DNA of 64,000 nucleotides from an uncultured SAR86 cluster bacterium (GTDB lineage Bacteria > Pseudomonadota > Gammaproteobacteria > Magnimaribacterales > D2472), in contig CABXJR010000002.1 of assembly GCA_902512655.1 (NCBI GenBank), forward strand, positions 66,867-130,866, written 5' to 3'. The notes beneath the pieces were generated by a model. That model ran no database searches. It saw nothing but the letters and a program-made list of their open reading frames with translations, and was not told the DNA's origin. Positions 3,182-62,789 of this stretch are shown here, in pieces (positions within the stretch are counted from its first letter, which is position 1; every line of letters begins with the position of its first letter). Both the position numbers and the translations under genes were made by a program.

Positions 3182-3703
3182 TTATCTCTTTCTTATTTGT
3201 GAGAGAACCATTAATAATTGTCTTCCCTCAAGAGATGGCTCTTGATCTACTTGAGCTATATCTTGGAGGTCCTCTCTCAAACGATTTAGAAGATCAAGAC
3301 CCAAATCACTATTTAAAATCTCCCTACCTCTAAATCGAACGCTGATTTTAGTCTTATCTCCGTCATTAATAAAGCTTTTTATCTTTCTTAATTTAATATT
3401 ATAATCGCCGATATCAGTAGTAGGACGAAACTTAATCTCTTTTAAAGATTGTTTTTTTGGTTTTTTAGTGCCGCCGGTACTTTTTTTCTTTTCAAATTGA
3501 AATTTACCAAAATCTAAAAGTTTGCAAACTACTGGTTGAGCGTCAGAAGGAGACACCTGGACTAAATCAAGACTTGTTTTCTGAGCCTCCTCTAAAGCTT
3601 CATCAATAGCCAATAATCCTATTTTTTCTCCATCAGAGCCAATTAACATAACCTCTTTTGCATAGATTTTATTATTTATAGGAGTCGTTGATTTTTTTTT
3701 CAA
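3182..3703 (-). CDS. infC: Translation initiation factor IF-3
   Basis: 173 aa. [36 protein letters not shown]...[18 protein letters not shown]...FRGREI aligns with E. coli IF-3. There is no in-frame ATG at the 5' end. Candidate starts are TTG 3703-3701 or ATC 3709-3707. Confidence 0.93.
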
Positions 3704-3835
3704 AGCGATAGCTAAAGACCTTATATGATGGAAAGAGAGGGATTAATCAAAGTATCTTTGATTTGATGTGTAGATTGTTAAGTGATTTAACATTGAGATG
3801 GATTTTATAGCATTATTCATAAAAAGAAAACATCC

Positions 3836-4435
3836 TTATGGCTGAAGTAATTGTTCTGCCCATTCGTTGTTTTGTTGCTCAAAGACTTGTCGTTTATTTA
3901 ATCTATTTTCATGACCTTGCCAAAACTCAAAATAATATGGGGTAAAAGAATAGCCTCCCCAGAAATTTGGTCTAACCGTTTCAGGTGTTATGGTTTTTAA
4001 AGCATCGTGAAAATTCTTTGCTACCTCATCAAATGAATCAATGGCCTTAGATTGATTGGAACTTATAGCTAATGCATTTTTTTCTTTAGTCCTGCCATTA
4101 AAATGCTCATCAGAAAATTCAGGAGATGTTTTAAAGATTTTGGCTTTCATTCTAATTTGAGTATTAATGCTTGCCCAATAGATAAGAACAGAAACTTGAC
4201 TATGAAACTCAAACTGATTTGATTTTGGAGAAAGATAATTTGAAAAAAAGATCCATTCATCATGAGCAATATACTTAAGGTTCACATACCTTGCTTCAAC
4301 TTCTTTCTTTTCCTGGTCATATGATGAAATAGAAATTGCTTCTATCCCTTTTTGGTCACTTTCTAGGGCTTCTTTATATAGAGATTGAAAATGAATATAG
4401 GGTTTTTCAGCGCTTGGATTAAGAAATTTAATCAT
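3836..4435 (-). CDS. pdxH: Pyridoxamine 5'-phosphate oxidase
   Basis: 199 aa. The C-terminal EFWQGHENRLNKRQVF...EWAEQLLQP aligns with E. coli PdxH (FWQGGEHRLHDR...IDRLAP). Confidence 0.88.
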   Translation of the reverse strand: MIKFLNPSAEKPYIHFQSLYKEALESDQKGIEAISISSYDQEKKEVEARYVNLKYIAHDEWIFFSNYLSPKSNQFEFHSQVSVLIYWASINTQIRMKAKIFKTSPEFSDEHFNGRTKEKNALAISSNQSKAIDSFDEVAKNFHDALKTITPETVRPNFWGGYSFTPYYFEFWQGHENRLNKRQVFEQQNNEWAEQLLQP

Positions 4436-4451
4436 GAAAAGTCAGGTGTAA

Positions 4452-4538
4452 TGGTGCCCAGAGCCGGACTTGAACCGGCACGAAGTTGCCTTCGAGGGAT
4501 TTTAAGTCCCTTGTGTCTACCAATTCCACCACCTGGGC
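4452..4538 (-). tRNA. tRNA-Leu (anticodon UAA), long variable arm, encoded CCA
   Basis: The reverse complement reads GCCCAGGTGGTGGAATTGGTAGACACAAGGGACTTAAAATCCCTCGAAGGCAACTTCGTGCCGGTTCAAGTCCGGCTCTGGGCACCA (87 nt). The acceptor stem is GCCCAGG/CCTGGGC-type. The anticodon stem GGGAC.. carries loop CTTAAAA, giving anticodon TAA. The T-arm is GGTTCAAGTCC. Confidence 0.93.
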
Positions 4539-4588
4539 AATTAGTTTCTATGATCAATATTGTTCTTAATTTAAGTATTTTAGAAAAA

Positions 4589-5896
4589 TTAAGCACTAAG
4601 CTTGAGTGAAATCCGTTCTCTTTCGGCATCAATTCCAAAAATGACGCAAGAGAGCTTGTCACCTTTTTTATAATTTTCCATTGCTTCAGCAGGATTTTCA
4701 TCCTCAGTAATATCTGAAAGGTGGATTAAACCATCAATATCACCTTCTAAACCAACAAAAATTCCAAAATCGGTTACAGATTTAATGCTGCCTTCAACAG
4801 AATCACCCAATCCATACTTGTTAGCAAATTCTGTCCAAGGATTAGATTTGGTTTGCTTTAAACCAAGAGAAATTCTTCTCTTGTCATGGTCTATTTCTAG
4901 AACCATCACTTTAATTTTCTCTTCTAAATCTACAACCTTTGAGGGGTGAATGTTTTTATTAGTCCAATCTAATTCTGATAAGTGTATTAAGCCTTCAACG
5001 CCCTGCTCAAGCTCAGCGAAACACCCATAGTCTGTTAAATTTGAAACTGTAGCTTCATATACACCGCCAACTGAATATTTTCCTTCAATTGTTTCCCATG
5101 GATCATTTTGAATCTGCTTTAACCCTAATGAAACTCGAAGTTTTTCTTTATCAAAACTTAATATTTTTACATCAATTTCTTCACCAAGACTTAAAACCTC
5201 AGCTGGATTAGTAACCCTTGACCATGAAATATCGGTTATGTGTAATAAGCCGTCTAAACCTCCCAGATCAACAAAAGCACCATAGTCAGTTAAGTTTTTG
5301 ACTGTGCCTTTAACGATTTGGCCTTCATCAAGATTTTTTAACAACTCGACTTTTTCAGCAGAATTAATTTTCTCTAAAACTGCCCTTCTTGAGAGAACGA
5401 CATTATTCCTTTTATAATCTAACTTGATAACTTTGAATTCTTGAACAGTATTCTCAAGCTCTGGGGCTTCCTTAACAGGTCTTATATCAACAAGTGAACC
5501 GGGTAAAAATGCTTTGACAACATCAACCTCAACAGAAAAACCGCCTTTAACTCTTGTTAGAACCTTTCCTTCAACAAATTCTCCAGTCTCTAATGCTTCT
5601 TCAAGCTTTTTCCAAGTTCCAATTTTTCTAGCCTTTTCGCGCGAAATTCTTGTTTCTCCATAGCCATCCTCAACTGCCTCTAAAGCAACTTGGACTTCAT
5701 CGCCAGATTCAATTTCAACCGATCCATCATTATTTCTAAACTCATCCAGGGAAATGACTCCCTCTGATTTCAATCCAACATGGACTGTCACCCATTCCTT
5801 ATCAACATCTAAAACAACTCCGGTTACAATGGAGCCGGGCTGCATTTCAAGTGTGCTTAGATTTTCATCTAATAGTGCTGCGAAGCTTTCTGACAT
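4589..5896 (-). CDS. rpsA: 30S ribosomal protein S1 (five S1 domains; short form)
   Basis: 435 aa. It is colinear with E. coli S1 from [11 protein letters not shown]... through DAERERISL, which is the end of domain 5. It then stops; the domain-6 region is absent. Confidence 0.93.
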
Positions 5897-5901
5897 ATTT
5901 T

Positions 5902-6564
5902 TTATACTTCCTTGGTATGTTCCTTATAAATTTTTAAAACTATTTCCAATACTTCTTGAGAAGTTAGATCAGAGGAGTTCACTTCGATAGAATCATCCGC
6001 TGGCATCAAAGGAGATATTTCTCTTGCCTTATCTGCCTCATCTCGCAATCTAATATCTTCAATCAGATCGCGCATATTAACGCCTTGACCTGCATTCTGC
6101 AACTCTAAAAACCTCCTCTTTGCTCTTACTTCCGCATTAGCAACTAAAAAAATTTTAGTACCGGCATCTGGAAATACAACAGTGCCCATATCCCTACCAT
6201 CTGCAACCAATCCATTATCGCTAGCTAAGTCTCTTTGAAAACTAATTAAGTTATCTCTAGTTTCTTTTAAACTGCTCAATTTTGAGGCGGTTTTAGCTAT
6301 ATTTTCATGTCTAAGGATTGAAGTTATATCTTTATTATCTTCATAAACATGCATCTCATGGTCAATGCTATCGATTCTTAAATTGGAAAATAGACCTTTT
6401 GCAGTAGAATGATTTTGAACTTGATCAAAACAATATGAATATGCTCGATAAAGCAGGCCACTATCTAATAACATAAAATTTAGTTCTTTAGCTAATGCTT
6501 TAGCAAGCGACCCTTTACCAGATGCAGATGGACCATCAACAGTAATAATATTATTATTTTTCAA
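5902..6564 (-). CDS. cmk: Cytidylate kinase
   Basis: 220 aa. P-loop [13 protein letters not shown] is present. It lies in the conserved aroA-cmk-rpsA order. Confidence 0.93.
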
Positions 6565-7870
6565 GCTTATATCCTATAGAAGAAATTAGCTCTATGAAAT
6601 CAGGAAATGATGTAAAAATATTTTTACAATCCTTTACTGTAATTGGTTTTGAACATCTCAAACCGGCAATTAGAAAACTCATAGCAATTCTATGGTCTTC
6701 ATGCGATTCAATAGAAATTGGTTGCTCTATTAAAAGTGTATTTGGGCTTCCCATAATACTCATACCATCCTCAAAATTTTCATGGGCAACTCCAAGTCTA
6801 CTGAAACCATCTGAAACGGCTTTTAACCTATCCGATTCCTTAACTCTTAATTCTGCAGCATCTCGAATCACGGTTTCCCCTTCTGCAAATGCAGCTGCAA
6901 TAGAAATGATAGGTATTTCGTCAATAATATTTGGAATGATGTCTCCAGAAAGTTCTACTCCCTTTAATATAGATTGTGTAATCTTTAAGTCGGCACAAGG
7001 CTCTCCTGACTCTAGTCTTTGATTTCTAACCTTAATATCTGCACCCATTTTTTGTAAGGCTAGCAAGACCCCTACTCTTGAGGGGTTCATTCCAACATTT
7101 TTAATTTCTAGCCCTTGTGAATTACTTATTAAGGCAGCAACTATTAAAAAAGCAGCCGAAGAAATGTCACCCACCACTGTGTAATTTTTAGCACTCAGAT
7201 TATTGGATGGTGCCAATTGAATAATATTCTTACTACCCTCGGATGCAATTTCTATATTTGCACCAAAGTTTCTTAGCATTCTTTCTGTATGATCTCTTGT
7301 TTGAATGGGTTCAATAATTTCAACACCGGTCCCTGAAGCAAGACCAGCCAATAAGATGCTTGACTTTACTTGAGCGCTTGCTACTGGTAACTCATAGGTA
7401 TATTGCTTTTTAAGTGATGTTGGCAATATTGAAATAGGCAACTTACCATTTGATGATTCAATGCTAGCACCCATTTCAGTTAATGGGTTTATTACTCTGC
7501 TCATCGGTCGAGAAGATAAAGAATCGTCGCCACAAAAAGAAAGATTTAAGCCAATACCAGAAGTCAAACCCAACATGAGACGTAAGCCAGTCCCGGAGTT
7601 ACCAAGATCAAGCGGCTCGTCACAGCTCTGAAAAATATTTTTTCTTTTGCATAAATGAACCAACCCATTTTCATCAACTGAAATGCCTGCTCCAATTTGA
7701 TTGAGAGCATTCATTGTGGAGAGCGGATCTTCCCCATGCAAGAAGCCATCAATTGTCATTTCTTGATTTATCAAAGCTCCGATCATAAGAGCTCTTTGCG
7801 AGATGGATTTATCTCCAGGACATTGAACCGTCCCAAAAATCTGGCTATTGATAGAAGTGGTTAAATTCAA
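6554..7870 (-). CDS. aroA: 3-phosphoshikimate 1-carboxyvinyltransferase (EPSP synthase)
   Basis: 438 aa. Motifs PGDKSISQRALM, LGNSGTGLRLM and RVKESDRL are typical of EPSP synthase. Confidence 0.95.
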   Translation of the reverse strand: MNLTTSINSQIFGTVQCPGDKSISQRALMIGALINQEMTIDGFLHGEDPLSTMNALNQIGAGISVDENGLVHLCKRKNIFQSCDEPLDLGNSGTGLRLMLGLTSGIGLNLSFCGDDSLSSRPMSRVINPLTEMGASIESSNGKLPISILPTSLKKQYTYELPVASAQVKSSILLAGLASGTGVEIIEPIQTRDHTERMLRNFGANIEIASEGSKNIIQLAPSNNLSAKNYTVVGDISSAAFLIVAALISNSQGLEIKNVGMNPSRVGVLLALQKMGADIKVRNQRLESGEPCADLKITQSILKGVELSGDIIPNIIDEIPIISIAAAFAEGETVIRDAAELRVKESDRLKAVSDGFSRLGVAHENFEDGMSIMGSPNTLLIEQPISIESHEDHRIAMSFLIAGLRCSKPITVKDCKNIFTSFPDFIELISSIGYKLEK

Positions 7871-8709
7871 TAGTTTGATTCCTTAAAATCTTTAAGTTCG
7901 CCTAGAAAAGTCTGAAGACTCTGAGGGTCTTTTCTAATCTTCTCCTTTAAAATACCGAGACTTTTCATCAAATCATCTATTGCTATGGCAATATTCTTTT
8001 CATTCATTGAAAAAATATCTGCCCACATTCTGGGAGAGGATGATGCCAGCCTTAAAAATTCTCCGAGACCACCGCCTGAAAAATCTGAAAGATCATCTTG
8101 TTCAAGCCCCTTTAAAGTATTCAATAATGCATAGGCCGCAACATGAGGAAGATGGCTAGAATATGCAAATATCTGGTCATGTAACTCAGCGTCCAACACT
8201 GTGATGTTTGATCCAAGTGTGCTCCATAGATTTGTAACTCGATCTACATGCTGTGATGCTACGGAGTCATGATAAGACAAGATTGTTGATTTTCCATTGA
8301 AAAGATCAGCGACTGAATTTTTTTCACCCGAAAGATGAGAGCCTGCTACAGGATGAGAGAAGATAAAATTTTTAGGAAAATTAAATTCTTGCAAAATTTT
8401 ATTTATAGAGTTTTTGGTGCTTGTTGTGTCCGTGATAGTAACCGAAGAATTGAATAAAAAATCTAAGGATTTTAGAATCTCATCGGTTGCACTCGGAGGA
8501 GTTGCAATAATTACCACTGAATCTTCGTATTCAGCATTTCCAAGATCATCAAGAGAATGAAGTGAGCCTTGAATTGATTGGTTTTCCAATGCATTCTTTA
8601 TGGTGTTTTGATCTGAATCAAAGGCTAAGATCTCGAAATCTTGAGCGCTTGATAAGGTTTTAGCTATTGATCCTCCAATTAATCCTAGGCCAATAATAAT
8701 AATTTTCAT
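7867..8709 (-). CDS. tyrA: Prephenate dehydrogenase
   Basis: 280 aa. It has the N-terminal Rossmann motif IIIIGLGLIGGSIA and the prephenate dehydrogenase region HPVAGS. The stop overlaps the aroA start by 4 nt. Confidence 0.85.
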   Translation of the reverse strand: MKIIIIGLGLIGGSIAKTLSSAQDFEILAFDSDQNTIKNALENQSIQGSLHSLDDLGNAEYEDSVVIIATPPSATDEILKSLDFLFNSSVTITDTTSTKNSINKILQEFNFPKNFIFSHPVAGSHLSGEKNSVADLFNGKSTILSYHDSVASQHVDRVTNLWSTLGSNITVLDAELHDQIFAYSSHLPHVAAYALLNTLKGLEQDDLSDFSGGGLGEFLRLASSSPRMWADIFSMNEKNIAIAIDDLMKSLGILKEKIRKDPQSLQTFLGELKDFKESNY

Positions 8710-9803
8710 AAAAGCTCTTCTAATGCGCTAAGAAATTTTAAGTTTTCAGCCTCTGTTCCAATTGTGACCCTTATAAAATCTTTCATATCATACAAGTCAA
8801 CAGATCTTACGATTACTCCTTTTTTCATAAGGTTGTTAAACATTTCTTTACCAATAAAGTTACCTTTAAAAGCAATGAAGTTCCCAACTGATGGAATGCA
8901 TTCAAGCCCAAGTTTGGATAATTTGTCGAATAAAAATTCATATTGTTGTGAATTTAACTCTATGCTTTGACGAATATGCTCATGATCATTAATTGCTACA
9001 GAAGCCATCACTTGGGCTATGGTATTTACATTGAAAGGCTGCCTGATTCGATTGAGAGCCTCAATTAAAGAGGGATTAGCAATACCATACCCAACACGAA
9101 TGCTGGCCAGGCCATGAATTTTAGAGAATGTTTTTGTAATCAATAAATTATCAAATTCATTTAACAAATCTAAAGGTTTTACGTAATCTTCTTTAGTTAC
9201 ATACTCAAAATATGCACAATCTAATACAACCAATACGGACGAAGGAACTTTTTTCAATAACGAATGAACTTCTTCGTGACTGTTATATGTACCTGTTGGG
9301 TTATTTGGGTTGGCAATAAAAATGACTCTTGTGCTGCTCTCTAAATGATCCTCAAATGATTCTAAATCGTGGCACCAGTTGCTTGCAGGAACTTCTATCA
9401 ACGATGCACCTGCAGACTGAGTAACAATTTTATACACTGCAAATGCGTGCTTTGAAGTAATGGATGATGTATTTGGATTAAGGAAAGCTCTTGCTGCTAA
9501 TTCAAGAATCTCATTAGAGCCATTTCCTATAATAATATTGTCAGAATGAACGTTCTCATGATTTGCAATTTCTTGTTTAAGCTTTGTTCCATTTCCATCA
9601 GGGTATAAATGCAAATCATCTTCAAGCCCTGCTAGGGTTGAAAGCGCTTTCGGAGATGCTCCAAGTGGATTTTCATTACTCGCTAGTTTTACGATTTCAT
9701 GATGACCAAATTCTGCAACAACTTCGTCGATTGAACGACCAGGCTCATATGGATGAAGATCCTCAATCCCAGGGTTAAGATTATTAAGAATGCCTGCACT
9801 CAT
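8706..9803 (-). CDS. hisC: Histidinol-phosphate / aromatic aminotransferase (class II)
   Basis: 365 aa. The PLP-lysine region is TKTFSKIHGLASIRVGYG. It sits between pheA and tyrA, as does Pseudomonas hisC2. Confidence 0.88.
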   Translation of the reverse strand: MSAGILNNLNPGIEDLHPYEPGRSIDEVVAEFGHHEIVKLASNENPLGASPKALSTLAGLEDDLHLYPDGNGTKLKQEIANHENVHSDNIIIGNGSNEILELAARAFLNPNTSSITSKHAFAVYKIVTQSAGASLIEVPASNWCHDLESFEDHLESSTRVIFIANPNNPTGTYNSHEEVHSLLKKVPSSVLVVLDCAYFEYVTKEDYVKPLDLLNEFDNLLITKTFSKIHGLASIRVGYGIANPSLIEALNRIRQPFNVNTIAQVMASVAINDHEHIRQSIELNSQQYEFLFDKLSKLGLECIPSVGNFIAFKGNFIGKEMFNNLMKKGVIVRSVDLYDMKDFIRVTIGTEAENLKFLSALEELL

Positions 9804-10882
9804 GAGTCTGATGGATATGAACCAAGGATTCGAACAGATGCTCCTAATTCCTTCAGATTACCAATAACCTGTTTTAGCTTTGCATCCTTATAGTGGCCGC
9901 TGCTATCTATAAAAAAATTATGTGCATTCAATGATTCTCTCGATGGACGTGTTTCAATTCTTTCTAGATTAATTTTTCTTTTTTTGAATGGGTCAAGTAT
10001 TTTAATTAAAGCTCCAGGCTGATTGTCTGTTTGGATTAAAAAGGAAGTTTTGTCTTTTTTAGTTTGCTCAATTTCAATATTGCCAATCACTAAAAATCTT
10101 GTATTGTTGCCAGAAAAATCTTCAATATCTTTTTGATATTGATGTAACTTATATTTATTAATTGCCAATGAGCTGACTATACATAAAGTTTTTGGATGGG
10201 CTTTTGAAAGCTTGGCAGCTTCTGCTGTGCTTGATGTAGTCTCCCTTTTTGTATTTGGTAAATTAGCATCCAACCACTTGCTGCATTGGCCAAGAGCTTG
10301 GGGGTGCGATGCAACAATTTGAGTATCCTCGAGTTTAAATTTTCTGGCGGAAGCTAGTTGATGATGAATAGGGAGATAGGTTTCACCACAAATATTTATC
10401 TCTTGATCTGCTAAAGAATTTAAGGTTGCATTTACTACTCCTTCGGAAGAATTTTCTACTGGCACAACCCCGAAGGTTGCTGAGCCAGTTCTTACTTGAT
10501 GAAAAACATCTTCTATCGTTGATCTTGGTGATCTTATTGGCGACGAACCAAAATGCTGAATCACTGCCCCTTCAGAATGAGTTCCTTCAGGACCAAGGTA
10601 TGCAATCGTTAATTCTTCCTCCAGTGAAAGACAAGAAGAGATGATCTCTTTAAATATATGATTAATTTTTTTCTCTGAAATTGGGCCCTCATTGAGCTTG
10701 GAGATATTTCTTAAGATCTCTGCTTCTCTATTAGGTTTGTAAAAAGAAGTGTTTGAGCTCATCAAGCTCTTTAATTTGCCTATTTTTTGTGCCAAAGAGC
10801 CTCTTCTCTGAATTAACTTCAGGATTTGATGATCAATAGCATCAATTTTTTGCCTTATAGGTTTAATTTTATTCTTACTCAC
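9800..10882 (-). CDS. pheA: Bifunctional chorismate mutase / prephenate dehydratase (P-protein)
   Basis: 360 aa with a GTG start. It has an N-terminal CM helix (IRQKIDAIDHQILKLIQRR), a PDT domain (TRFLVIG) and an ACT domain (ETRPSRE). Confidence 0.92.
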   Translation of the reverse strand: MSKNKIKPIRQKIDAIDHQILKLIQRRGSLAQKIGKLKSLMSSNTSFYKPNREAEILRNISKLNEGPISEKKINHIFKEIISSCLSLEEELTIAYLGPEGTHSEGAVIQHFGSSPIRSPRSTIEDVFHQVRTGSATFGVVPVENSSEGVVNATLNSLADQEINICGETYLPIHHQLASARKFKLEDTQIVASHPQALGQCSKWLDANLPNTKRETTSSTAEAAKLSKAHPKTLCIVSSLAINKYKLHQYQKDIEDFSGNNTRFLVIGNIEIEQTKKDKTSFLIQTDNQPGALIKILDPFKKRKINLERIETRPSRESLNAHNFFIDSSGHYKDAKLKQVIGNLKELGASVRILGSYPSDS

Positions 10883-47362: not shown

Positions 47363-49594
47363 TTAGGAAGGGTAGTTAACGTAAATTGGGCTTGACCAAG
47401 CTCTATTTTCTGCAGGAGCAAGACAGTCTCCTCTATTCTCATGAACCCCTACTCTACATATTTCAGTTTTGATACATTTACCATTTTCATCAAATTCACA
47501 ACCCAATGGATCAGCAGAAAGTTTTAGCGAGGGCTCTTCGATGGCTCTAACATAATAAACAGCATCTCTTCGACCAATTGAGAATTGCTCGTCTTTAAAT
47601 GACACCTCGCAAGTTGTACTATTGCAAGGCAAAGTCTTCCATACATCTTCTACAAGGCCTTCAACTGGTTCATTTTCATATTGTTGTGGCAAAATTCTAA
47701 TAACTTCAATTCGTGTAATAACTCTTCTTTCATTACTAGGGTTGTAACATTCTGAATTACAAATCTTCTCTAAACGCTCTTTTGTTAATCCATTATTGCT
47801 GTATTCAGGACAACCAGGTTTTTGCTTAAGAGAGCCCGCTGCTTTTACAGTGAATACTGGTGATTCATTACTTTCAACTTCTGAGCCCATTGATAAAGAT
47901 TCAGATTGAGTTTCTGCATCAAACCACAAAAGAATTCTTGGTCCAGAAGTTGCATAAACTTCTTTTCTTTCTAGAGCATCCCAAATTGATTCTCTTTTTC
48001 TAGATGTTGAGTGAGCAGCAACTAGGCCTCCAGACATAAAGTATGCACTTTGTCTTTCAGCGTCCGTAGCTATATTTAAATCCATAATACTGCTCAAGTT
48101 AGTATTGCCCAAATCAACATAAGAGGGTTCTAATTCACCTTTTGGGCGCCTTAAATCGCTCATTTTTTCATAAAATGGGTCATTGAAACCATTAGCCTCA
48201 GTATTAAAAAGTCGATCAATTTCTTTATATCCTGTACCTGGTCGAGCACCATGATTATCGCTTGAACCAATAAACCCAAACTTAAAACGTTGTGGATTTT
48301 CTTTATCGGTAAAATCACTTAATGCTAAAACATACTGAGCAGAGCCTAGAGGCCTATAGTTAAATGATGGCAGAAAACAATCATTGCATTGCCCAGCATT
48401 TAAATAATCATCAGGATTTGTTTCATTCACTGCAGCATATCCTGTTGAGCCCATTTGAGCTGCAAATAATTTCGTTTGATCTACTAAATACTTACAAGTT
48501 TGATCATCCATCCCAGAGGTTTGGCATCTTTCAGCCATAATATTGCCAGCCTGTTGGCAGGTTGGTAAGAAATCTTTAGTTTCATCGGGACAAAAAAGCT
48601 CAACGTTTAGATCTATATCTGAATCATTCCAAGTTCTGTATTCTTCTGAGTTACCATGACCAGAATAAATTTCAAATAAAAATTGAGACTCATCGTCCTT
48701 AAAATCTTTTAATTGTTTTTTCCAATCAGATGTTGGTGGAGTATAAAATCCCCAAGTAGTGCCATGAGGAATTACCATGTAAGGTGTATCCCAATCTTTC
48801 AATTTCTGAAACAAAATATTTGGATTAGTTGCCTCCTCGTAACAATTCACAGGAAGATCTCTGGTATTAACTCCTTCAGGGCATATAGGCGTTGCTTGGA
48901 TTTCGTCAAAAAATTTGTCGAACGCGAAGAATCTATCTCTATTTTTGAAATCTAGAGTTGAAGGCAAAGCAGACATTGTCCATGGCAAACCAAGTCTCAT
49001 TACCAATGGAGCAACTCCTCCCGAGCCAATTGCTCTTGGTGGAACCAAAGCATCATCGGTTTCTAAAAAAATAACATTTTTATGTCCATAATGATTTTCT
49101 GGATTCGGATCAACCTGAGTCCACTCCCATCCTAAAAAGCTAACTAAATCATCTGTCCCTTCTGATAAATTATTACATTGTTGAATGCTTTGTTTTGTAT
49201 CCAGCCATTTTCTTGGAGTGCTAGCTTCAGCATGATCGTTGATAGACCAAAAATCTAAAGCTGAACAAAATCTTGCGTAATCACATGCGTCTGCTAATGG
49301 GGAGGCTCCTTTACCATTCATAAAAGGCAAAGACCACATGAATGCGTCTGTTGAGTAGGTTGTATGAACATGTAGATCACCAAAGAGAATTTGTTTTTCA
49401 TCCAAAACCTCTAATTCTGATTTCACCAGATTAATCCTCGTGGCTCTATCTTGAAGTGCTTTTTCTGGAAGAACTCTTCCCTCAATAACTCCAGGCCCAT
49501 CCAATGTTCCAAAAACTTTTAAAACTGCGCCTCCAAAAAAAATAGCTACAGTAAAAATAAAAAGTAGAACGAGTGAAGTTAGAAGGTTTCTCAT
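47363..49594 (-). CDS. Exported Cys-rich PHP-like metallohydrolase-fold protein (DUF3604-like), function unknown
   Basis: 743 aa. It has an N-terminal signal/anchor (MRNLLTSLVLLFIFTVAIFFGG) and an early GDLHVHTTYSTDAF motif, as in PHP/DUF3604 proteins. About 28 Cys residues are spread along the chain. Confidence 0.6.
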   Translation of the reverse strand: MRNLLTSLVLLFIFTVAIFFGGAVLKVFGTLDGPGVIEGRVLPEKALQDRATRINLVKSELEVLDEKQILFGDLHVHTTYSTDAFMWSLPFMNGKGASPLADACDYARFCSALDFWSINDHAEASTPRKWLDTKQSIQQCNNLSEGTDDLVSFLGWEWTQVDPNPENHYGHKNVIFLETDDALVPPRAIGSGGVAPLVMRLGLPWTMSALPSTLDFKNRDRFFAFDKFFDEIQATPICPEGVNTRDLPVNCYEEATNPNILFQKLKDWDTPYMVIPHGTTWGFYTPPTSDWKKQLKDFKDDESQFLFEIYSGHGNSEEYRTWNDSDIDLNVELFCPDETKDFLPTCQQAGNIMAERCQTSGMDDQTCKYLVDQTKLFAAQMGSTGYAAVNETNPDDYLNAGQCNDCFLPSFNYRPLGSAQYVLALSDFTDKENPQRFKFGFIGSSDNHGARPGTGYKEIDRLFNTEANGFNDPFYEKMSDLRRPKGELEPSYVDLGNTNLSSIMDLNIATDAERQSAYFMSGGLVAAHSTSRKRESIWDALERKEVYATSGPRILLWFDAETQSESLSMGSEVESNESPVFTVKAAGSLKQKPGCPEYSNNGLTKERLEKICNSECYNPSNERRVITRIEVIRILPQQYENEPVEGLVEDVWKTLPCNSTTCEVSFKDEQFSIGRRDAVYYVRAIEEPSLKLSADPLGCEFDENGKCIKTEICRVGVHENRGDCLAPAENRAWSSPIYVNYPS

Positions 49595-55404: not shown

Positions 55405-56259
55405 TTGATCAGGTTAATGATGACATTATGGCAAGGTCTTTGCCATCTACCAACTTCATGGCATCCAGCAATAGGAAAATACTGTGGCAAGCTCCTATTT
55501 ATTATTGCTAAGAAGAGAAAAGAAATTGCGCAAGCAAATATTGAAGCATGCTTCCTAAATCTATCAAAGGCGGAGCAACAAAAACTCTTGCAGGATAACT
55601 TTATGTTCTTGGGAAGATCATTTATAGAAACAGGCATAGCTTGGTTTTGGTCAGATAAAAAAATACAAACCAAAGTTGATTATGAGGTAATTGGTTTAGA
55701 TCTTTTATCTAATAATAATTCTAATGATGGAAACTTAATCATTTTCAAGCACTCCCAACATCTAGAATTAGATGCTCGTCTTTTTGCCATGAATACTGAA
55801 TTGTATGGAGTCAGCAGACCGCATAATTCTATTTCAATGAATGCAATTCAAGATAGAGGACGGCTTTCAAGCATGAAAGGCACCGCAGATAAAAGTAATC
55901 CACGAAAATTTATGAAATGGCTAAAGACTGGAAAGAGCGTTATGTATGCGATAGATCAAGATTATGGGTGGAATCATTCTGTTCAATTAAAGTTTTTTAA
56001 TCAAGCGGCTGCTACCATCATCACCACTAGAAAGATCATTGATGCAACCAATGCTAATTTATTATTTTTAAATTCATATTATAAAAATAATAGATTGATT
56101 CTTAAGTTAGAATTAATTGATCATATGGAGCTGAATTCTGAAGAGTTAGCGCAAGAAATTAATGACCTGATGCAAGACAAAATTCTTCTACATCCAGCTG
56201 AGTATCTATGGGCACACAGACGATTTAAATCTACGTTAGGAAAAGACTTTTACAAATAA
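55405..56259 (+). CDS. lpxL: Lipid A biosynthesis (Kdo)2-lipid IVA acyltransferase (LpxL/HtrB family)
   Basis: It is colinear with E. coli LpxL: NIEACF...ETGIAWFW...YAIDQDYG...PAEYLWAHRRFKS. The true start is probably ATG 55417 or 55420. Confidence 0.88.
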   Translation: MIRLMMTLWQGLCHLPTSWHPAIGKYCGKLLFIIAKKRKEIAQANIEACFLNLSKAEQQKLLQDNFMFLGRSFIETGIAWFWSDKKIQTKVDYEVIGLDLLSNNNSNDGNLIIFKHSQHLELDARLFAMNTELYGVSRPHNSISMNAIQDRGRLSSMKGTADKSNPRKFMKWLKTGKSVMYAIDQDYGWNHSVQLKFFNQAAATIITTRKIIDATNANLLFLNSYYKNNRLILKLELIDHMELNSEELAQEINDLMQDKILLHPAEYLWAHRRFKSTLGKDFYK

Positions 56260-56260
56260 T

Positions 56261-56866
56261 ATGGACTTTGAACAATTAAATAATCTTAAAGGGTTCATGC
56301 CAAGCCATGAGGGATTAGCATTAACAAAATGGGCAAAAGAATTTTCAAATTACGGCCCAGCACTAGAGATTGGTACCTTTGGAGCTAAATCCACACTTTA
56401 CATAGCAGCTGGGAGTTCAACCCATAGCCAGCTCGTTTATACAATAGATCATCATTCTGGTTCAGAGGAACATCAACTAGGTGAAGAGTATTTTGATTCA
56501 GAGATTTATGATAAAAAATTAGGTCGAGTGAATACGGTGCCTTTAATGCAAGCAAACCTTCAGCAATTTGATGAGAGCAAATGGATAGTGCCAATTCTTG
56601 CAAATGCAAACTCTATTGCGCCTTCATGGGGAATAGAATTAGGGTTCTTATTCATTGATGGCAGTCATACTAAAGTATCGGCAATGAATGATTATGATAA
56701 TTGGAGCTCTAAACTCCACCCTCAAGGAGCATTGGTAATTCATGATATCTATGAAAAACCTGAAGAGGGTGGGCAGGCGCCATTTCTAATTTATCAAAAA
56801 GCTTTAGAGGAAGGGTTCCAACTATACGAACGAGTTGATACGATAGTTTGCCTTACAAAGACTTAA
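56261..56866 (+). CDS. Class I SAM-dependent methyltransferase (cation-dependent O-MT-like)
   Basis: 201 aa. EIGTFGAKST resembles a SAM-binding loop. FIDGSH and VIHDI are acidic/His positions like those in Methyltransf_24-type O-methyltransferases. Confidence 0.7.
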   Translation: MDFEQLNNLKGFMPSHEGLALTKWAKEFSNYGPALEIGTFGAKSTLYIAAGSSTHSQLVYTIDHHSGSEEHQLGEEYFDSEIYDKKLGRVNTVPLMQANLQQFDESKWIVPILANANSIAPSWGIELGFLFIDGSHTKVSAMNDYDNWSSKLHPQGALVIHDIYEKPEEGGQAPFLIYQKALEEGFQLYERVDTIVCLTKT

Positions 56867-57899
56867 ATTGTTCCTTTAGAAATAAATCAGCTCCAGAGGT
56901 AAGCTTATTATTTGCATCTGCAGCAAGAATGCATGCTGCTGAAGTCCATGAAGGCGTTTCATCTGGCCAGTAAATATTTTCATTAAACTGCCAACCCATA
57001 TAAGGTATGCCCTTGCTATCAACTATTGAGATAGCATTTTGAAGCAATTCTAAAGCAATTTTATCTTTACCAATTTTTTTATAAGCAATAGAACACTCGC
57101 AAGTCTCAGCAACTGTTACCCAGGGTTCATCTGATACACATTTTATTCCTAGACCTTTGATCCAGAATGAATTTTTGATAATTTTTGTTAAAGATGCGAT
57201 TCTTTGTTTAGAATTTATTCCGCCCAAAATGGGATAATACCAGTCCATTGAAAACCTACTGCGATCTTTTTTTAAGTCAAAAATATTACTGGGGTTTTCA
57301 AGCGCCCTGATTAATTTTGAATGTGCAGCTTTCCATTCTGATTCATAACGTTGGTGCTCCAAAACTTGGGAAATAGCTATTGCACACTCAAGACTTTTAG
57401 CAATAGAACTGCAGCCAGTTAAAAGATAGTCCTCATCAATTTTTGCATACTCATCTATATTCCATGCAATTGCCCCATTTTTATGCTGAAGAGAAAGAGA
57501 GAATAAAATACCCTTCTTAACTGACTCCCAAAAATTTTTTAGAAAATTAATATCATTATTAAGGAGATAGAAATGCCATACCGCAACAGCAATATATGAA
57601 GAATAATTGCTCTGCTTATTAAGTTCTAATGGTTCATCATTTTGATATAAGTTATACCAACTACCATCTTCATTTTGATTGGCGATCATCCAATGCAAAC
57701 CTTTTAGAGCCTGAGTGTTATAGCTCAAAGTAGTCAGCCCCATGACAGCCTCAAGATGGTCCCATGGATCATGGGAACCATCTTTATTAGAGGGGATAGC
57801 TCCTGAAAGAAGTTGGACATCTTTTAAAAACTTACCTAAATGATTTAGACCCCCAAGAGAACTAGGATCAATATGAGATATATTTGGAAAGTTTTTCAT
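56853..57899 (-). CDS. alpha/alpha-toroid (six-hairpin) protein: glycoside-hydrolase-like or prenyltransferase-like, function unknown
   Basis: 348 aa. It has repeated helix-turn signatures rich in W/G/D: NEDGSWYNLY, QHKNGAIAWNI, SMDWYYPILGG, KGIPYMGWQF, PSWTSAACILA. Confidence 0.45.
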   Translation of the reverse strand: MKNFPNISHIDPSSLGGLNHLGKFLKDVQLLSGAIPSNKDGSHDPWDHLEAVMGLTTLSYNTQALKGLHWMIANQNEDGSWYNLYQNDEPLELNKQSNYSSYIAVAVWHFYLLNNDINFLKNFWESVKKGILFSLSLQHKNGAIAWNIDEYAKIDEDYLLTGCSSIAKSLECAIAISQVLEHQRYESEWKAAHSKLIRALENPSNIFDLKKDRSRFSMDWYYPILGGINSKQRIASLTKIIKNSFWIKGLGIKCVSDEPWVTVAETCECSIAYKKIGKDKIALELLQNAISIVDSKGIPYMGWQFNENIYWPDETPSWTSAACILAADANNKLTSGADLFLKEQFKSL

Positions 57900-58600
57900 T
57901 TCTTTTCGAAATAAAATGCAATGCTTTTTCCAAAAATAGGATTAATAATCTTTTCAAAATTATTCAGCCATGCAGGGCTATGTAAAATTTGATATTCAAG
58001 AAATTTTTTATATATTTTTACGAAGTAATTGGAATCTTGGTTATTCCAAAAAAGACATCGCAGCCACCAATAAGCACTATGCAGACCATGAAATCTTTCA
58101 GCATGATCATAATAAAATCCGCGATCAATAATCTCATTAATAATTTGGCGTTTTTTAAATATTCTTACATGCCCGCCAGGCATATTTTGATAGCCTGACG
58201 AGAGAGTCCAGCAAATTTTTTCAGGCCAAAATGAAGGAACGCTCGGCAAAAACTTTCCTCCAGGTTTTAGGACCCTGTAAATCTCATCAATTGATGCATG
58301 ATAATCATCCAGATGTTCTAAAACCTCTGAGCAAATCACTAGATCAAAGCTATTTTCTTCAAAGGGGAGATTGTATACAGAGCCTTGCATGAAAACAGTA
58401 GAGCCAGTGTTCAATTCTTTAAAAAAATCTAATCCTTCATTACATTTATTTAATGAATAAATATCCTGATCTAATCCAACACAATGCACATCTATATATT
58501 CTTGCAAAGAGCCAAAAATATGGCGCCCCCCTCCACAACCCACATCTAGAACTCTTGCATTAACTGGAAGATGAATATGTTTTAAGTTAAAAGTTAGCAT
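57896..58600 (-). CDS. Class I SAM-dependent methyltransferase (Methyltransf_11-like)
   Basis: 234 aa. It carries VLDVGCGGGRH, DLVICSEVLEHL and LKPGG. Its 4-nt and 7-nt overlaps with the flanking genes indicate one operon. Confidence 0.85.
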   Translation of the reverse strand: MLTFNLKHIHLPVNARVLDVGCGGGRHIFGSLQEYIDVHCVGLDQDIYSLNKCNEGLDFFKELNTGSTVFMQGSVYNLPFEENSFDLVICSEVLEHLDDYHASIDEIYRVLKPGGKFLPSVPSFWPEKICWTLSSGYQNMPGGHVRIFKKRQIINEIIDRGFYYDHAERFHGLHSAYWWLRCLFWNNQDSNYFVKIYKKFLEYQILHSPAWLNNFEKIINPIFGKSIAFYFEKK

Positions 58601-59895
58601 TTAAAATCTTGTATTATTTTATACATTAAATCCTCATAAGACTTTGAAATTTTTTGCCAATCAAAGTTTTCTATTATATGTTTTCTTCCGCTCTCAGCTC
58701 TATTTTGATACTTGGATGGATTTGACAAAATATTTCGTATAGATACTTCGATACTCTCTGAATCATTCGCAGGAATAAGCTCAGCAAAATTACTTGTGAT
58801 TTCAGGAATAGATGCAACATTTGTGGCAATCAGGGGAATGCTACATGCCATTGCCTCTCCAACGGGAAAACCAAAACCTTCATAAAGTGAGCTAACAATT
58901 GCAATATTACTGCTTGCATACTCAATTGCAATTTCTTCTTTTGTTAAATTAGTTTTGTAAACAATATTAGCTTCAATTTTTAGTTTTTGTATTAGGCGTT
59001 CGGTGTGGCCACCGTTCCTTGGAGCGCCAATAATAACAAGCCGCAGGGAAGGAAACTCTTCTTTTAATGCAGAGATAGCTTTTAAAGTAAAATCTAAGCC
59101 CTTTAAGGGAACATCAGCACTTGCTGTGGTAATAATTTGGCCCTTAGTTCTAGAAATATTATCTTTAGGAGAAAAAACCTTAAAATCAATTCCATTCGGT
59201 ATGACCGAAATCTTTTTGCTGGAGACGCTAAAATCTTTAGCAATATCTTTCTTTGAATTAATCGATGGGGTTGAGATAGCTTTTAATTTTGGGGCGACTT
59301 TTTTCTGCATTCTTAGAAAAGAAAACCATCGCCATCTTGAAATTTTTTGAATTATTCCTCTTGAAAATTCAAGATCATATTTATAGTCTTTGGTAATAGG
59401 GTGATGGATGATTTCAAGAACAGGGAGGCTTTTCTCAATTTCAAGAATACCGAAACTGATAGATTGGTTATCAATTAAAATATCATATGATGAGTTACAA
59501 ACTAACTTTTTTAACCTATTTCCAAATGTTTTCATTTCAGGGAACCCGCCGAATAAGGCAGAAAAAAATTCATACCAATCATCTAGAGTTCTATTTTTCT
59601 TATTTATGAACATAGAAAGTCTTTCTTTGAATACGAAAGTGCTGAATAAATCTAATCCGGGAGATTTAATTAAGTTAATTTCTGGCTCTAGATTTGGATA
59701 TGGTGGGCCAGATATTATGTCAACATTATGCCCGCGGGCCTGCAAGGCTTTAGATAACTCATATATAAATATACCCTGACCACCTCCAAATGGAGCGCTT
59801 CGATAGCTTGATATAGCAATATTTAATTTTGGATTCAATTTATATTTAAGATTGAATTTCGGTAAGCCAATCTGAATAGTTAGTATCCATGCCAC
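58594..59895 (-). CDS. Glycosyltransferase family 4 (GT-B, retaining)
   Basis: The C-terminal EX7E region is SSLYEGFGFPVGEAMACSIPLIATN. The N-terminal region is GGGQGIFIYELSKALQARGHNV. ATG 59895 overlaps ilvE by 50 nt. TTG 59838, 7 nt after the ilvE stop, is an alternative start. Confidence 0.85.
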   Translation of the reverse strand: MAWILTIQIGLPKFNLKYKLNPKLNIAISSYRSAPFGGGQGIFIYELSKALQARGHNVDIISGPPYPNLEPEINLIKSPGLDLFSTFVFKERLSMFINKKNRTLDDWYEFFSALFGGFPEMKTFGNRLKKLVCNSSYDILIDNQSISFGILEIEKSLPVLEIIHHPITKDYKYDLEFSRGIIQKISRWRWFSFLRMQKKVAPKLKAISTPSINSKKDIAKDFSVSSKKISVIPNGIDFKVFSPKDNISRTKGQIITTASADVPLKGLDFTLKAISALKEEFPSLRLVIIGAPRNGGHTERLIQKLKIEANIVYKTNLTKEEIAIEYASSNIAIVSSLYEGFGFPVGEAMACSIPLIATNVASIPEITSNFAELIPANDSESIEVSIRNILSNPSKYQNRAESGRKHIIENFDWQKISKSYEDLMYKIIQDFKC

Positions 59896-60772
59896 AAACT
59901 ATCTCAGAATATTTATTCTGAATAATCTCAGTAATTGGGCCAATAGAACCAGAACCAATTGTTGAACCATCAACAGTAGTAATTGGAGTAATTTCAACAG
60001 CCGTTCCAGAATAAAAAGCCTCATCAGCATCTAATAGATCCTGAAAAGAGAGATTTTTTTCTTCAACAGAATAATCAAGGTTTTTGGCAATAGAGATTAC
60101 GCTTTGCCTTGTAATTCCATTCAAACAATAATCTGTTGTGGGAGTAATTAATGCAGAATTTTTGACAATAAAAAGATTTTCTCCGCTCCCCTCAGATATA
60201 TAGCCGTTTTTATCCATAAGTATTGCTTCTTCAGCGCCCTTAGAAATGGCATCATTAACCGCCATAATTGAATTGACATATGTACCAATAATTTTATTGT
60301 TTGAATATAAGGGGTTGTCATATTGCTGAAAAGGTGACTTTATAACTGATATGCCATGTTTTTTAGCGTCTGGATCCATGTATGATGGCCATTCCCAGCA
60401 TGCAATAGCAACATTTACTGAGAGTGAGTCTTGAGATCTAAGACCCATAGACTCACTGCCAAGGTATACGATTGGCCTAATGTAGCCTTCTCTAAGTTTA
60501 TTTTTAGACATAGTATCTATTTGAGCTTGGCACAATTCATCAGCGGAATATGGGATAGTAATATTAATTTTTGATGCTGCAGAAAATAGTCTTTCAGTAT
60601 GCTCGGTTAATCTAAATATAGCTCCTCCATTTTTTGTTTCATATGCTCGAACTCCCTCAAAAACACCCATTCCATAGTGCAAAGTATTAGATAAAAGATG
60701 AATATTTGTATCATTAAATGGTTGAAAATCTCCATTCAGCCAAATAAATTTTGAGTCTGTATTAAGAAACAT
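59846..60772 (-). CDS. ilvE: Branched-chain amino acid aminotransferase
   Basis: 308 aa, fold-type IV PLP enzyme pattern (FEGVRAY..., EGSGENLF, GITR). Confidence 0.92.
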   Translation of the reverse strand: MFLNTDSKFIWLNGDFQPFNDTNIHLLSNTLHYGMGVFEGVRAYETKNGGAIFRLTEHTERLFSAASKINITIPYSADELCQAQIDTMSKNKLREGYIRPIVYLGSESMGLRSQDSLSVNVAIACWEWPSYMDPDAKKHGISVIKSPFQQYDNPLYSNNKIIGTYVNSIMAVNDAISKGAEEAILMDKNGYISEGSGENLFIVKNSALITPTTDYCLNGITRQSVISIAKNLDYSVEEKNLSFQDLLDADEAFYSGTAVEITPITTVDGSTIGSGSIGPITEIIQNKYSEIVCGMDTNYSDWLTEIQS

Positions 60773-60838: not shown

Positions 60839-62212
60839 ATGATCGATAAATCCATTTTTAGGGAATATGATATTCGGGGGATAGTTCCTGAACAAATAAA
60901 TGAATACTCAATAAAAGCTATAGCATCAGCCATATCAGCTAAGTGTCATGATGAAGAAGTTGATGAATTAGCTTTAGGTAGAGACGGGCGTCTTTCTGGG
61001 AGCGAGATATTAAACTCACTTTCACAAGAGTTGCGATTACTAGGAATAAAAATTGTTAATGTAGGGGTAGTAACAAGCCCTCTTTTGTATTTTGCTGCAA
61101 AAAAATTAAACTCTAAATCTGGTGTCATGATAACAGGCAGCCACAATCCAAAAAACTACAATGGCTTTAAAATAGTAATCAATGACTCACCAGTCTCGGG
61201 GACTGAGATGCTTGATTTAATTTCAAGTGAAATAATTCATTCCAAAGATACTGGATCTGAAATTGTTAAAGAAGACTTAATGGATGAATATATTGCTGAA
61301 GTTATTGCTCAAGCATCCAATAGTTCGAAAGAAATTAAAGTTGTTGTTGATTGCGGAAATGGGTCTGCTGGAGAAATTGCACCAAGATTAATGCGCGCAT
61401 TAGGATATGAAGTAGTGGAATTATTTTGTGAGGTGGATGGAAATTTTCCCAATCACCATCCTGATCCAGGTAAGGTAGAAAATCTACAAGACCTTATAAG
61501 CGCTGTAAAAGAGGAGGACGCAGACATTGGAGTTGCATTTGATGGAGATGGCGACAGGCTTGGAGTAGTAAGCAATCTAGGAGAAATTATTTACCCAGAT
61601 CAGCTTATGATGATATTTAGCAAAGCGGTATTGAAAAATAGTAAAAATAAAAAAATTGTATTTGATGTTAAGTGCACAAATTTACTTGATAAAATTATTA
61701 CTAAAGCTGGTGGCATGCCAGTAATGTCTCCCACAGGACATTTTCATATTAAAAATACCCTCAAAGAAACTAATGCTCCACTTGCTGGAGAAATGAGCGG
61801 GCATATCTTCTTTAATGATCAATGGTATGGCTTTGATGACGGACATTATTCAGCTTTTAGACTAATAGAAATAATGAAAAATTCTAAATCTTCTCTTGGA
61901 TCTATTTTTGATGAACTTCCGAAAGCGTACTCGACACCTGAAATTAATATAGATGTTGACGAAGATAAAAAATTTAAAATAGTCGAGGACTTTGTAGCAA
62001 AATCTGACTTTGAAAATGGTGAAAAAAACACAATTGATGGCTTGAGGGTTAATTTTGAAGATGGTTGGGGTCTACTGAGAGCCTCAAATACAACCCCAAA
62101 ACTGGTTTTGAGGTTTGAGGCAAATTCTCTTGAAAGATTGAAAGAAATACAAAGTATATTTATTCTTCAGCTAAAAAGAATTGATGAATCAATCAACATT
62201 GAGCTAAGCTAA
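60839..62212 (+). CDS. algC: Phosphomannomutase / phosphoglucomutase
   Basis: 457 aa. It has the active-site loop MITGSHNPKNYNGFK, the metal loop GVAFDGDGDR and the sugar loop GEMSGH. Confidence 0.9.
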   Translation: MIDKSIFREYDIRGIVPEQINEYSIKAIASAISAKCHDEEVDELALGRDGRLSGSEILNSLSQELRLLGIKIVNVGVVTSPLLYFAAKKLNSKSGVMITGSHNPKNYNGFKIVINDSPVSGTEMLDLISSEIIHSKDTGSEIVKEDLMDEYIAEVIAQASNSSKEIKVVVDCGNGSAGEIAPRLMRALGYEVVELFCEVDGNFPNHHPDPGKVENLQDLISAVKEEDADIGVAFDGDGDRLGVVSNLGEIIYPDQLMMIFSKAVLKNSKNKKIVFDVKCTNLLDKIITKAGGMPVMSPTGHFHIKNTLKETNAPLAGEMSGHIFFNDQWYGFDDGHYSAFRLIEIMKNSKSSLGSIFDELPKAYSTPEINIDVDEDKKFKIVEDFVAKSDFENGEKNTIDGLRVNFEDGWGLLRASNTTPKLVLRFEANSLERLKEIQSIFILQLKRIDESINIELS

Positions 62213-62216
62213 AGCA

Positions 62217-62789
62217 ATGCCAAAAGATAGAAAGCAAATTATTCTACAGAGTTTAGCGAAGCTTCTAGAAGAAAGAGATGCGACCAAAGTAACCACTGCG
62301 GTTTTAGCCTCAGAAAGCGGTATTACTGAAGCAGCGTTATATAGACATTTTCCTAGCAAGCGATCAATTTTTTTAGAATTATTTTCATTTTGCGATCAAA
62401 CTATTTTTCACAAAGTTGGAGAAATCAAAAAAGAGTCTGAAATAGACTCAGAAGAAAAAGTAAGATTAATATTCTTTTTTTATGCAATTTTTTTAGAGAA
62501 AAATAAAGGTTTTGCAAGGATATTATCCCGAGAGGCATTGGGTCCTAGTGAGCAAAATGTGATAGATTCTGTGAATCAATTTTATGAGAGATTGGAACTG
62601 TCATTAAAACAACTGCTTTCATCAAAAAAAGATTCTTTAAAGCTGACGGCAGGTCAAAGTGCTCATCTCATTACCTCAATAATGGAAGGAATGATTTCAC
62701 GTTTTATTAGAAGTAAGTTCAAGGAAGTTCCTAGTAGTTATATTGAAAATTATTGGACTTTGATTGTAAGCAGTATCTTTAAAAGCTAA
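62217..62789 (+). CDS. slmA: Nucleoid occlusion factor SlmA (TetR family)
   Basis: 190 aa. RKQIILQSLAKLLEE...VTTAVLASESGITEAALYRHFPSKRSIF aligns closely with the E. coli SlmA N-terminus. Confidence 0.85.
   Translation: MPKDRKQIILQSLAKLLEERDATKVTTAVLASESGITEAALYRHFPSKRSIFLELFSFCDQTIFHKVGEIKKESEIDSEEKVRLIFFFYAIFLEKNKGFARILSREALGPSEQNVIDSVNQFYERLELSLKQLLSSKKDSLKLTAGQSAHLITSIMEGMISRFIRSKFKEVPSSYIENYWTLIVSSIFKS

Follow-up and report, generated by a model that had tools for sequence, protein, structure and literature searches.

A probable methylmannose polysaccharide gene cassette in the chromosome of a SAR86-like gammaproteobacterium

The stretch of DNA analysed here (the window), 64,000 nucleotides of contig CABXJR010000002.1 from an uncultured SAR86 cluster bacterium, carries a compact cassette of four genes: a family 4 glycosyltransferase (GT4), a methyltransferase with a Methyltransf_11 domain, a putative (alpha/alpha)6-barrel protein and, convergent to these, a second methyltransferase of 201 aa. 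The cassette is quite probably an orthologous copy, set in a SAR86-like core chromosome, of the four-gene methylmannose polysaccharide (MMP) module known from Mycobacterium hassiacum and M. smegmatis, which comprises ManT, pMeT3, MmpH and MeT1. A resemblance to this cluster had been put forward in the original prediction, made from the sequence alone; it proves to be one of specific homology, not just of folds, with E-values of 4.9e-59 for the barrel protein against MmpH, 3.1e-72 for the GT4 against ManT, 2.9e-43 for the 201-aa methyltransferase against the structure 6G7D, and 2e-58 for the Methyltransf_11 protein against an actinobacterial gene in the pMeT3 position. In mycobacteria the product is a chain of 11-14 3-O-methyl-mannose units, joined by alpha-(1->4) linkages and carrying a 1-O-methyl aglycon.

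The only significant match of the barrel protein in the PDB is MmpH of M. hassiacum (7QSJ; Maranha et al., 2023, PMC9883506), over residues 24-340 and at 36.7% identity; a profile of its family matches MmpH over the full length (E 1e-140). Eight of the nine catalytic and sugar-subsite residues listed for MmpH (PMC9883506) are kept: D47/W49/D50/T163/M215/Y219/E262/E265 are present as D44/W46/D47/T161/M218/Y222/E265/E268, while F102 is Y99 in the window protein and M, H or Q in other homologues. Those kept include the acid candidates D47 and D50 and the base E262, alanine variants of which lose all or most activity (PMC9883506). No model for the MmpH family in Pfam or NCBIfam reaches threshold on the protein: Pfam gives a sub-threshold rhamnosidase six-hairpin match only, and NCBIfam a weak match to the GH15-like “oligosaccharide amylase” TIGR01577 (E 4e-13). 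The fold is assigned by sequence homology to 7QSJ, the AlphaFold2 model having a predicted local distance difference test (pLDDT) score of 49.6, from a shallow alignment of sequences at least 81% identical. The protein is predicted to be an MmpH orthologue, an endo-alpha-(1->4)-mannosidase that would cut mature chains into primers.

For the GT4 (Pfam Glycos_transf_1, E 1e-28, and Glyco_transf_4, E 6e-17), a phmmer comparison with all solved structures places M. hassiacum ManT first (7QSG; PMC9883506), over residues 23-419 and at 35.4% identity; the next GT4 follows only at E 2e-17, and the lipopolysaccharide (LPS) core transferase WaaG/RfaG only at E 3e-5. A further Pfam match, to “GT4-conflict” (48 bits), was treated as generic GT4 similarity. 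ManT residues G15, H142, K240, E313, G314, F315 and E321 are all kept, in the window protein and in 65 of 65 homologues; G15, H142, K240, E313 and E321 serve in catalysis or donor binding, E313, G314 and F315 are those of the mannosyl loop, and alanine variants of K240, E313 and E321 lose all or most activity (PMC9883506). We predict a ManT orthologue, a retaining alpha-(1->4)-mannosyltransferase elongating the chain.

The 201-aa protein has a Methyltransf_24 domain (E 3e-14). Its only match in the PDB, up to E 1, is to 6G7D/6G80/6H40, which we take to be M. hassiacum MeT1 structures; it is 41.3% identical to 6G7D. That 6G7D is MeT1 is consistent with the 57-60% identity to its chain of the syntenic actinobacterial MeT1-position genes. 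Three blocks common to the window protein and 6G7D (DHHxGSEEHQ, FIDGxH, and HD) are among the positions conserved at 95% or more in 57 sequences. The protein is predicted to be a MeT1 orthologue, a 1-O-methyltransferase capping the reducing end.

The Methyltransf_11 protein (domain E 1e-21) has only generic matches in the PDB, with no entry described as a pMeT3 structure among them. It is 36% identical end to end to P0271, the pMeT3-position methyltransferase of an actinobacterial cluster (L074) in which the other three proteins, ManT, MmpH and MeT1, reach 60-66% identity to the solved M. hassiacum ones, and the alignment takes in the family-specific C-terminal half. Its identity to the syntenic gene in loci from Mycobacteriales, Streptomyces, and Dietzia is 33-38%. 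A protein database search with the L074 protein returned Nocardioidaceae-type relatives only, which were used for pairwise comparison and for the AlphaFold2 alignment. The model of the window protein (pLDDT 76.6) is closest among PDB folds to AtmM and RebM, both sugar O-methyltransferases, at a modest template modelling (TM) score of about 0.6. A pMeT3 orthologue is predicted, of the class I S-adenosylmethionine (SAM)-dependent type and acting as a 3-O-methyltransferase of the chain.

If the window proteins act like their mycobacterial counterparts, the ManT-like enzyme would add mannose from a nucleotide-mannose donor (in mycobacteria GDP-mannose, GDP-Man; PMC9883506) to alpha-(1->4)-linked manno-oligosaccharide acceptors, the pMeT3-like enzyme would 3-O-methylate the added residues, and the MeT1-like enzyme would methylate the 1-OH of the reducing end; the MmpH-like hydrolase would then cut mature chains internally, the resulting oligomers priming new ones. 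This is the “self-recycling, partially conservative replication” model of Maranha et al. (2023; PMC9883506), and its steps are carried over by homology to the mycobacterial system, the present evidence being of homology, conserved residues, synteny and predicted location. The expected product is a polymethylated polysaccharide, short and amphipathic. All four proteins are predicted to be soluble and cytoplasmic: none has a membrane segment or signal peptide, in a test in which the waaA product, as a control, shows its membrane anchor. For the mycobacterial polymers, binding of long acyl chains has been proposed, as has a role in fatty-acid metabolism, modulated through the sequestration of newly made acyl-CoA chains; loss of MmpH slows mycobacterial growth at 15 C (PMC9883506).

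The cassette recurs, in the same order, well beyond the window. With a profile run against one genome per species, more than 596 homologues were recorded, of which the best 80 loci were examined. All four genes are present in 50 of these, and in every one of the 50 they are arranged as ManT-pMeT3-MmpH followed by a convergent MeT1; since these independent four-gene loci all share one order and orientation, the arrangement is not one of chance. It is also the order of MHAS_04402-04405 in M. hassiacum (PMC9883506), compared by locus tag; in the actinobacterial loci examined MeT1 is likewise convergent. The four-gene loci comprise 35 from Gammaproteobacteria (SAR86, Halieaceae, Cellvibrionaceae, Spongiibacteraceae, and other Pseudomonadales), 5 from Alphaproteobacteria (Caulobacteraceae, Phenylobacterium, OCS116), 5 from Desulfobacterota (Smithella and other Syntrophales), 3 from Actinomycetota, and 2 unclassified. 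By the identity of their proteins to the M. hassiacum structures (52-65%), the actinobacterial loci (Mycobacteriales, Streptomyces, Nocardioidaceae-like) are the known MMP cluster. Within the marine relatives of the window, barrel proteins 81-98% identical head a search of 5.8 billion proteins, coming from marine metagenomes including Tara, and several of their 90%-identity clusters have 150-426 members each; in four long marine contigs the locus recurs, with the same housekeeping genes around it, at 70-88% protein identity.

Two variants were seen in Desulfobacterota. The Syntrophales loci (L038, at 4046-10574; L045, L071, L048, and L081) have an extended cassette, in the order ManT, pMeT3, MmpH, a hexapeptide-repeat acyl/acetyltransferase, a B12-binding radical SAM enzyme, and convergent MeT1; in L048 and L081 the acyltransferase family was not recovered by the open reading frame (ORF) caller. 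The acyltransferase brings to mind the acetylated MMP known from Streptomyces griseus, and the radical SAM enzyme hints at a further modification, perhaps C-methylation. Desulfobacteraceae (L013, at 3616-5419; L019, at 5956-7746; L059, L068, and others) have MmpH homologues, 36-38% identical to the window protein, beside the same hexapeptide transferase and without homologues of ManT, pMeT3 or MeT1; in L019 a different GT4 lies about 3 kb away. These loci may have a different substrate, or a split pathway.

A horizontal origin, which the original prediction had proposed to look for in base composition and codon usage, finds little in its favor. The G+C contents of the cassette, overall and at third codon positions, are within about 1.4 standard deviations of those of the 39 other genes in the window, and in codon divergence only the short pMeT3 gene (0.241) is just above the maximum of the others (0.237). 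In a neighbor-joining tree of the four concatenated proteins the groups follow taxonomy, with the window among SAR86-type sequences. A plasmid search found no plasmid-borne copies of the cassette, its sole match being a mislabelled Nonomuraea chromosome without annotation. Recent acquisition from Actinobacteria is thus unlikely, given a tree congruent with taxonomy, composition like that of the flanking genes, and the lack of plasmid copies; composition, synteny and tree together led us to reject it, and the module appears to have been inherited largely vertically within the major proteobacterial lineages.

Several points weigh against equating the window locus with the mycobacterial one. Identity to the characterized enzymes is only 35-41%, and the biochemistry of the module comes from its actinobacterial members alone. 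The pMeT3 assignment was made through the syntenic L074 gene, not through M. hassiacum WP_005631136.1 itself, and in mycobacteria pMeT3 is still termed “putative” (PMC9883506). In the GT4, ManT D293, the proposed contact to the guanine of GDP-Man (PMC9883506), is replaced by K300, and among Proteobacteria the position is T, N, K or R, usually followed by an acidic residue; as D293 is not conserved, GDP-Man is here no more than a candidate donor. No motif of the GDP-mannose pyrophosphorylase (sugar-nucleotidyltransferase) type was seen in the 64-kb window, which is uninformative for the genome as a whole.

Some of these points would fit a second possibility, that the same enzyme module makes a chemically distinct methylated oligosaccharide, differing in its hexose, nucleotide donor, methylation position, chain length or acylation. 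We consider this unlikely, if by no means negligible. In addition to the modest identities and the loss of the guanine-contact Asp outside Actinomycetota, it could account for the replacement of MmpH F102, by Y here and by M, H or Q elsewhere; the acyltransferase and B12-radical-SAM enzyme added in the Syntrophales cassettes indicate that the chemistry of the module has been elaborated in some lineages, and an acetylated form has been reported from S. griseus (PMC9883506). On the other hand, the remaining eight MmpH catalytic and subsite residues are kept, ManT E313/G314/F315 are invariant in all 65 homologues, and the window protein shares the family-specific loops of MeT1 with 6G7D.

As a third possibility, the GT4 and the methyltransferases might decorate LPS, placing methylated mannose on the core or building a methyl-mannose O-chain; the original prediction had offered this as its competing explanation because waaA and lpxL adjoin the cassette. 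They do, with the MeT1-like gene beginning 1 nt past lpxL, and gammaproteobacterial cassettes are repeatedly found near waaA, lpxL, hldE, tolC, cpdA, rfbBAC, glnE or ilvE, many of them 0-5 kb from waaA, hldE, tolC or rfbBAC. (In three Halieaceae loci, L012, L022, and L042, the cassette is directly downstream of putative dTDP-rhamnose genes rfbB/rfbC/rfbA, recognized by eye, and upstream of hldE or tolC.) Of these neighbors, glnE, ilvE, hldE, waaA, tolC, and cpdA are housekeeping genes, presumably an ancestrally linked block as on the E. coli and Pseudomonas gene maps; with vertical inheritance, such a block would keep the cassette next to LPS genes without any functional link. The adjacency is moreover limited to the gammaproteobacterial loci: the same cassette lies among unrelated neighbors, away from LPS genes, in Alphaproteobacteria, Syntrophales, and the LPS-free Actinomycetota, which weakens the LPS explanation. 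A 3-O-methylmannose homopolymer O-antigen has been described, in the alphaproteobacterium Oligotropha carboxidovorans (PMC9883506), but LPS assembly has no use for an endo-hydrolase in the cytoplasm, the cassette is not accompanied by Wzm/Wzt, Wzx/Wzy or ligase genes, and the GT4 matches ManT (E 3e-72) far better than WaaG (E 3e-5). An intracellular polymer fits the endo-hydrolase and the missing export genes better, and decoration of LPS seems improbable.

The last possibility would make a prenyltransferase or terpene cyclase of the barrel protein, and an isoprenoid or lipid the target of the cassette. It is scarcely conceivable: it is favored by the “prenyltransferase” name given by NCBI to P0115 (82% identical to the barrel protein) and by a match of the family profile to squalene-hopene cyclase (E 3e-16), but this covers only a QxxDGSW-type repeat of about 35 residues, against the full length for MmpH, no DxDD or DDxxD motif was seen on reading the barrel sequence, and the MmpH catalytic D/D/E/E set is intact. 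The short repeat in common with squalene-hopene cyclase would also explain the label, which appears to be a misannotation of the MmpH family.

The orthology to the MMP module preferred here can also be set against known systems. The mycobacterial cluster (Ripoll-Rozada 2019; Maranha et al., 2023) shares with the window the same four families (E 3e-43 to 3e-72 to solved structures), gene order and catalytic residues, and its proteins too are soluble and cytoplasmic; the actinobacterial loci examined resemble the window as well in that their MeT1 runs toward MmpH. The window differs in its Gram negative, low-GC (35%), marine host without mycolic acids, in the 35-41% identity of its proteins and the D293 to K change in ManT, and in the location of the locus between ilvE and lpxL/waaA. 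The acetylated MMP (AMMP) of S. griseus is an example of the module at work outside Mycobacterium, though still in an actinobacterium, and the same four genes are found in Streptomyces bicolor (locus L080); AMMP carries acetyl groups, while the window cassette, unlike the Syntrophales variant, includes no acyltransferase. The mycobacterial 6-O-methylglucose lipopolysaccharide (MGLP), the second polymethylated polysaccharide known, is likewise cytoplasmic, with an alpha-1,4 backbone and a proposed role as an acyl-chain binder. Its pathway has a distinct set of enzymes, starts from a glucosylglycerate primer and is not known to include an MmpH or MeT1 homologue; the matches of the window proteins are to enzymes of MMP, not of MGLP. 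The structural neighbors of MmpH are the glycoside hydrolase (GH) family GH15 glucoamylase/glucodextranase and GH125 alpha-mannosidase, in clan GH-L (PMC9883506), which share with it the (alpha/alpha)6 barrel and an inverting acid/base pair. The likeness of the barrel protein to GH15 and GH125 is at the level of fold and motif only (glucodextranase 1UG9 matches the family profile weakly, E 0.03), while the MmpH match spans the whole protein. WaaG/RfaG similarly has the GT4 fold in common with the window GT4 but little more by E-value. SAM-dependent sugar methylation beside LPS genes is known from O-antigen methyl-capping systems (e.g., WbdD); LPS systems are not known to have a dedicated endo-hydrolase, and the window cassette has no O-antigen export or polymerization genes.

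The layout of the locus is given in Table 1. The four ORFs are located where the original prediction had placed them, and the identities it gave to the neighbors waaA, lpxL, and the phosphomannomutase/phosphoglucomutase (PGM/PMM) gene are borne out by Pfam and NCBIfam domain calls; only the start of the GT4 gene needs revision. The longest ORF does extend to the GTG, but this is 50 nt inside ilvE, while an in-frame TTG 7 nt past the ilvE stop gives a protein of the length called for the GT4 in the four syntenic metagenome contigs, and the ManT alignment starts at the same place; the TTG is therefore the likely start. The coordinates give overlaps of 7 nt between the GT4 and Methyltransf_11 genes, 4 nt between the Methyltransf_11 and barrel genes, and 14 nt between the barrel gene and the convergent MeT1-like gene, with a single base separating the ATG of the latter from the lpxL stop.

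Table 1. Genes of the cassette and its surroundings, in window coordinates
Gene or product	Position	Strand	Remarks
ManT-like GT4	58594-59838	-	Probable TTG start at 59838, 414 aa; longest ORF reaches GTG at 59895
Methyltransf_11 protein (pMeT3-like)	57896-58600	-	234 aa
(alpha/alpha)6-barrel protein (MmpH-like)	56853-57899	-	348 aa; no Pfam family above threshold
MeT1-like Methyltransf_24-type methyltransferase	56261-56866	+	201 aa
waaA	54108-55343		
lpxL	55405-56259		
ilvE	59846-60772		
PGM/PMM	60839-62212	+	All four PGM_PMM domains
slmA	62217-62789		

The PGM/PMM gene is a possible, weakly indicated supplier of hexose-1-phosphate and lies outside the conserved module. Its product scores 468 bits with the NCBIfam model PgmG, under the 600-bit cut-off. 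It adjoins the cassette only in SAR86-type loci, and since its place beside slmA is kept across these, a functional link to the cassette does not follow from proximity alone. Promoter-like sites in the window are at chance level (35 found, 36.5 expected), so that the scan is silent on operon structure; an Rfam scan of the window found one tRNA only and no rRNA. The lpxL ORF has a TTG start, its Pfam match begins at profile position 18, and its product has no N-terminal hydrophobic anchor (maximum hydropathy 0.74), while in relatives a length of 280 aa is called; either the start is possibly wrong, or this LpxL may lack an anchor. An ORF of 743 aa at 47363-49594 corresponds, by position, to a DUF3604 protein found beside purA in the syntenic contigs.

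In the literature searched, MMP, the alpha-(1->4)-mannosyltransferase, and the endomannosidase have been treated as rare mycobacterial or actinobacterial traits, their function framed by mycobacterial fatty-acid and envelope lipid metabolism (PMC9883506). The survey of Maranha et al. (2023) covered Actinobacteria only, and described conservation “among several genera of Actinobacteria”; the supplementary ConSurf alignments of the same paper include homologues labelled Gammaproteobacteria, Halieaceae, Deltaproteobacteria, and Desulfo*, on which the text makes no comment (PMC9883506). In the literature mentioning these polysaccharides we found none on other phyla and no follow-up of MmpH (the PNAS 2019 MeT1 paper was outside this scope). 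To judge from the genes, the polymer itself is probably not confined to actinobacteria. What is described here is a known system whose host range is wider than expected, and no new kind of system: complete syntenic cassettes with conserved catalytic residues, in SAR86-like bacteria and dozens of other Proteobacteria and Desulfobacterota, widen that range by several phyla, and the public “prenyltransferase” annotation of the hydrolase can be corrected.

Beyond this, we hold as an evenly balanced proposition that MMP-type polysaccharides are an ancient cytoplasmic polymer, passed down mainly by vertical descent, in many Gram negative bacteria, among them SAR86, Halieaceae, Cellvibrionaceae, Spongiibacteraceae, Caulobacteraceae, OCS116, and Syntrophales. 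If so, their function would be independent of mycolic-acid metabolism, and might be one of general acyl-chain buffering or of cold adaptation; degradation of lipids or hydrocarbons is known from the groups to which many of the carriers belong. Cultured Gram negative carriers, such as Seongchinamella sediminis U0301 (L021) and Pseudomaricurvus hydrocarbonicus JCM 30134 (L036), allow the function of MMP to be studied away from the mycobacterial envelope. Given the marine metagenomic origin and large cluster sizes of the window's relatives, any product could also matter for marine carbon chemistry. More speculatively, such a polymer in abundant marine bacteria could contribute methylated sugars to the organic matter of seawater.

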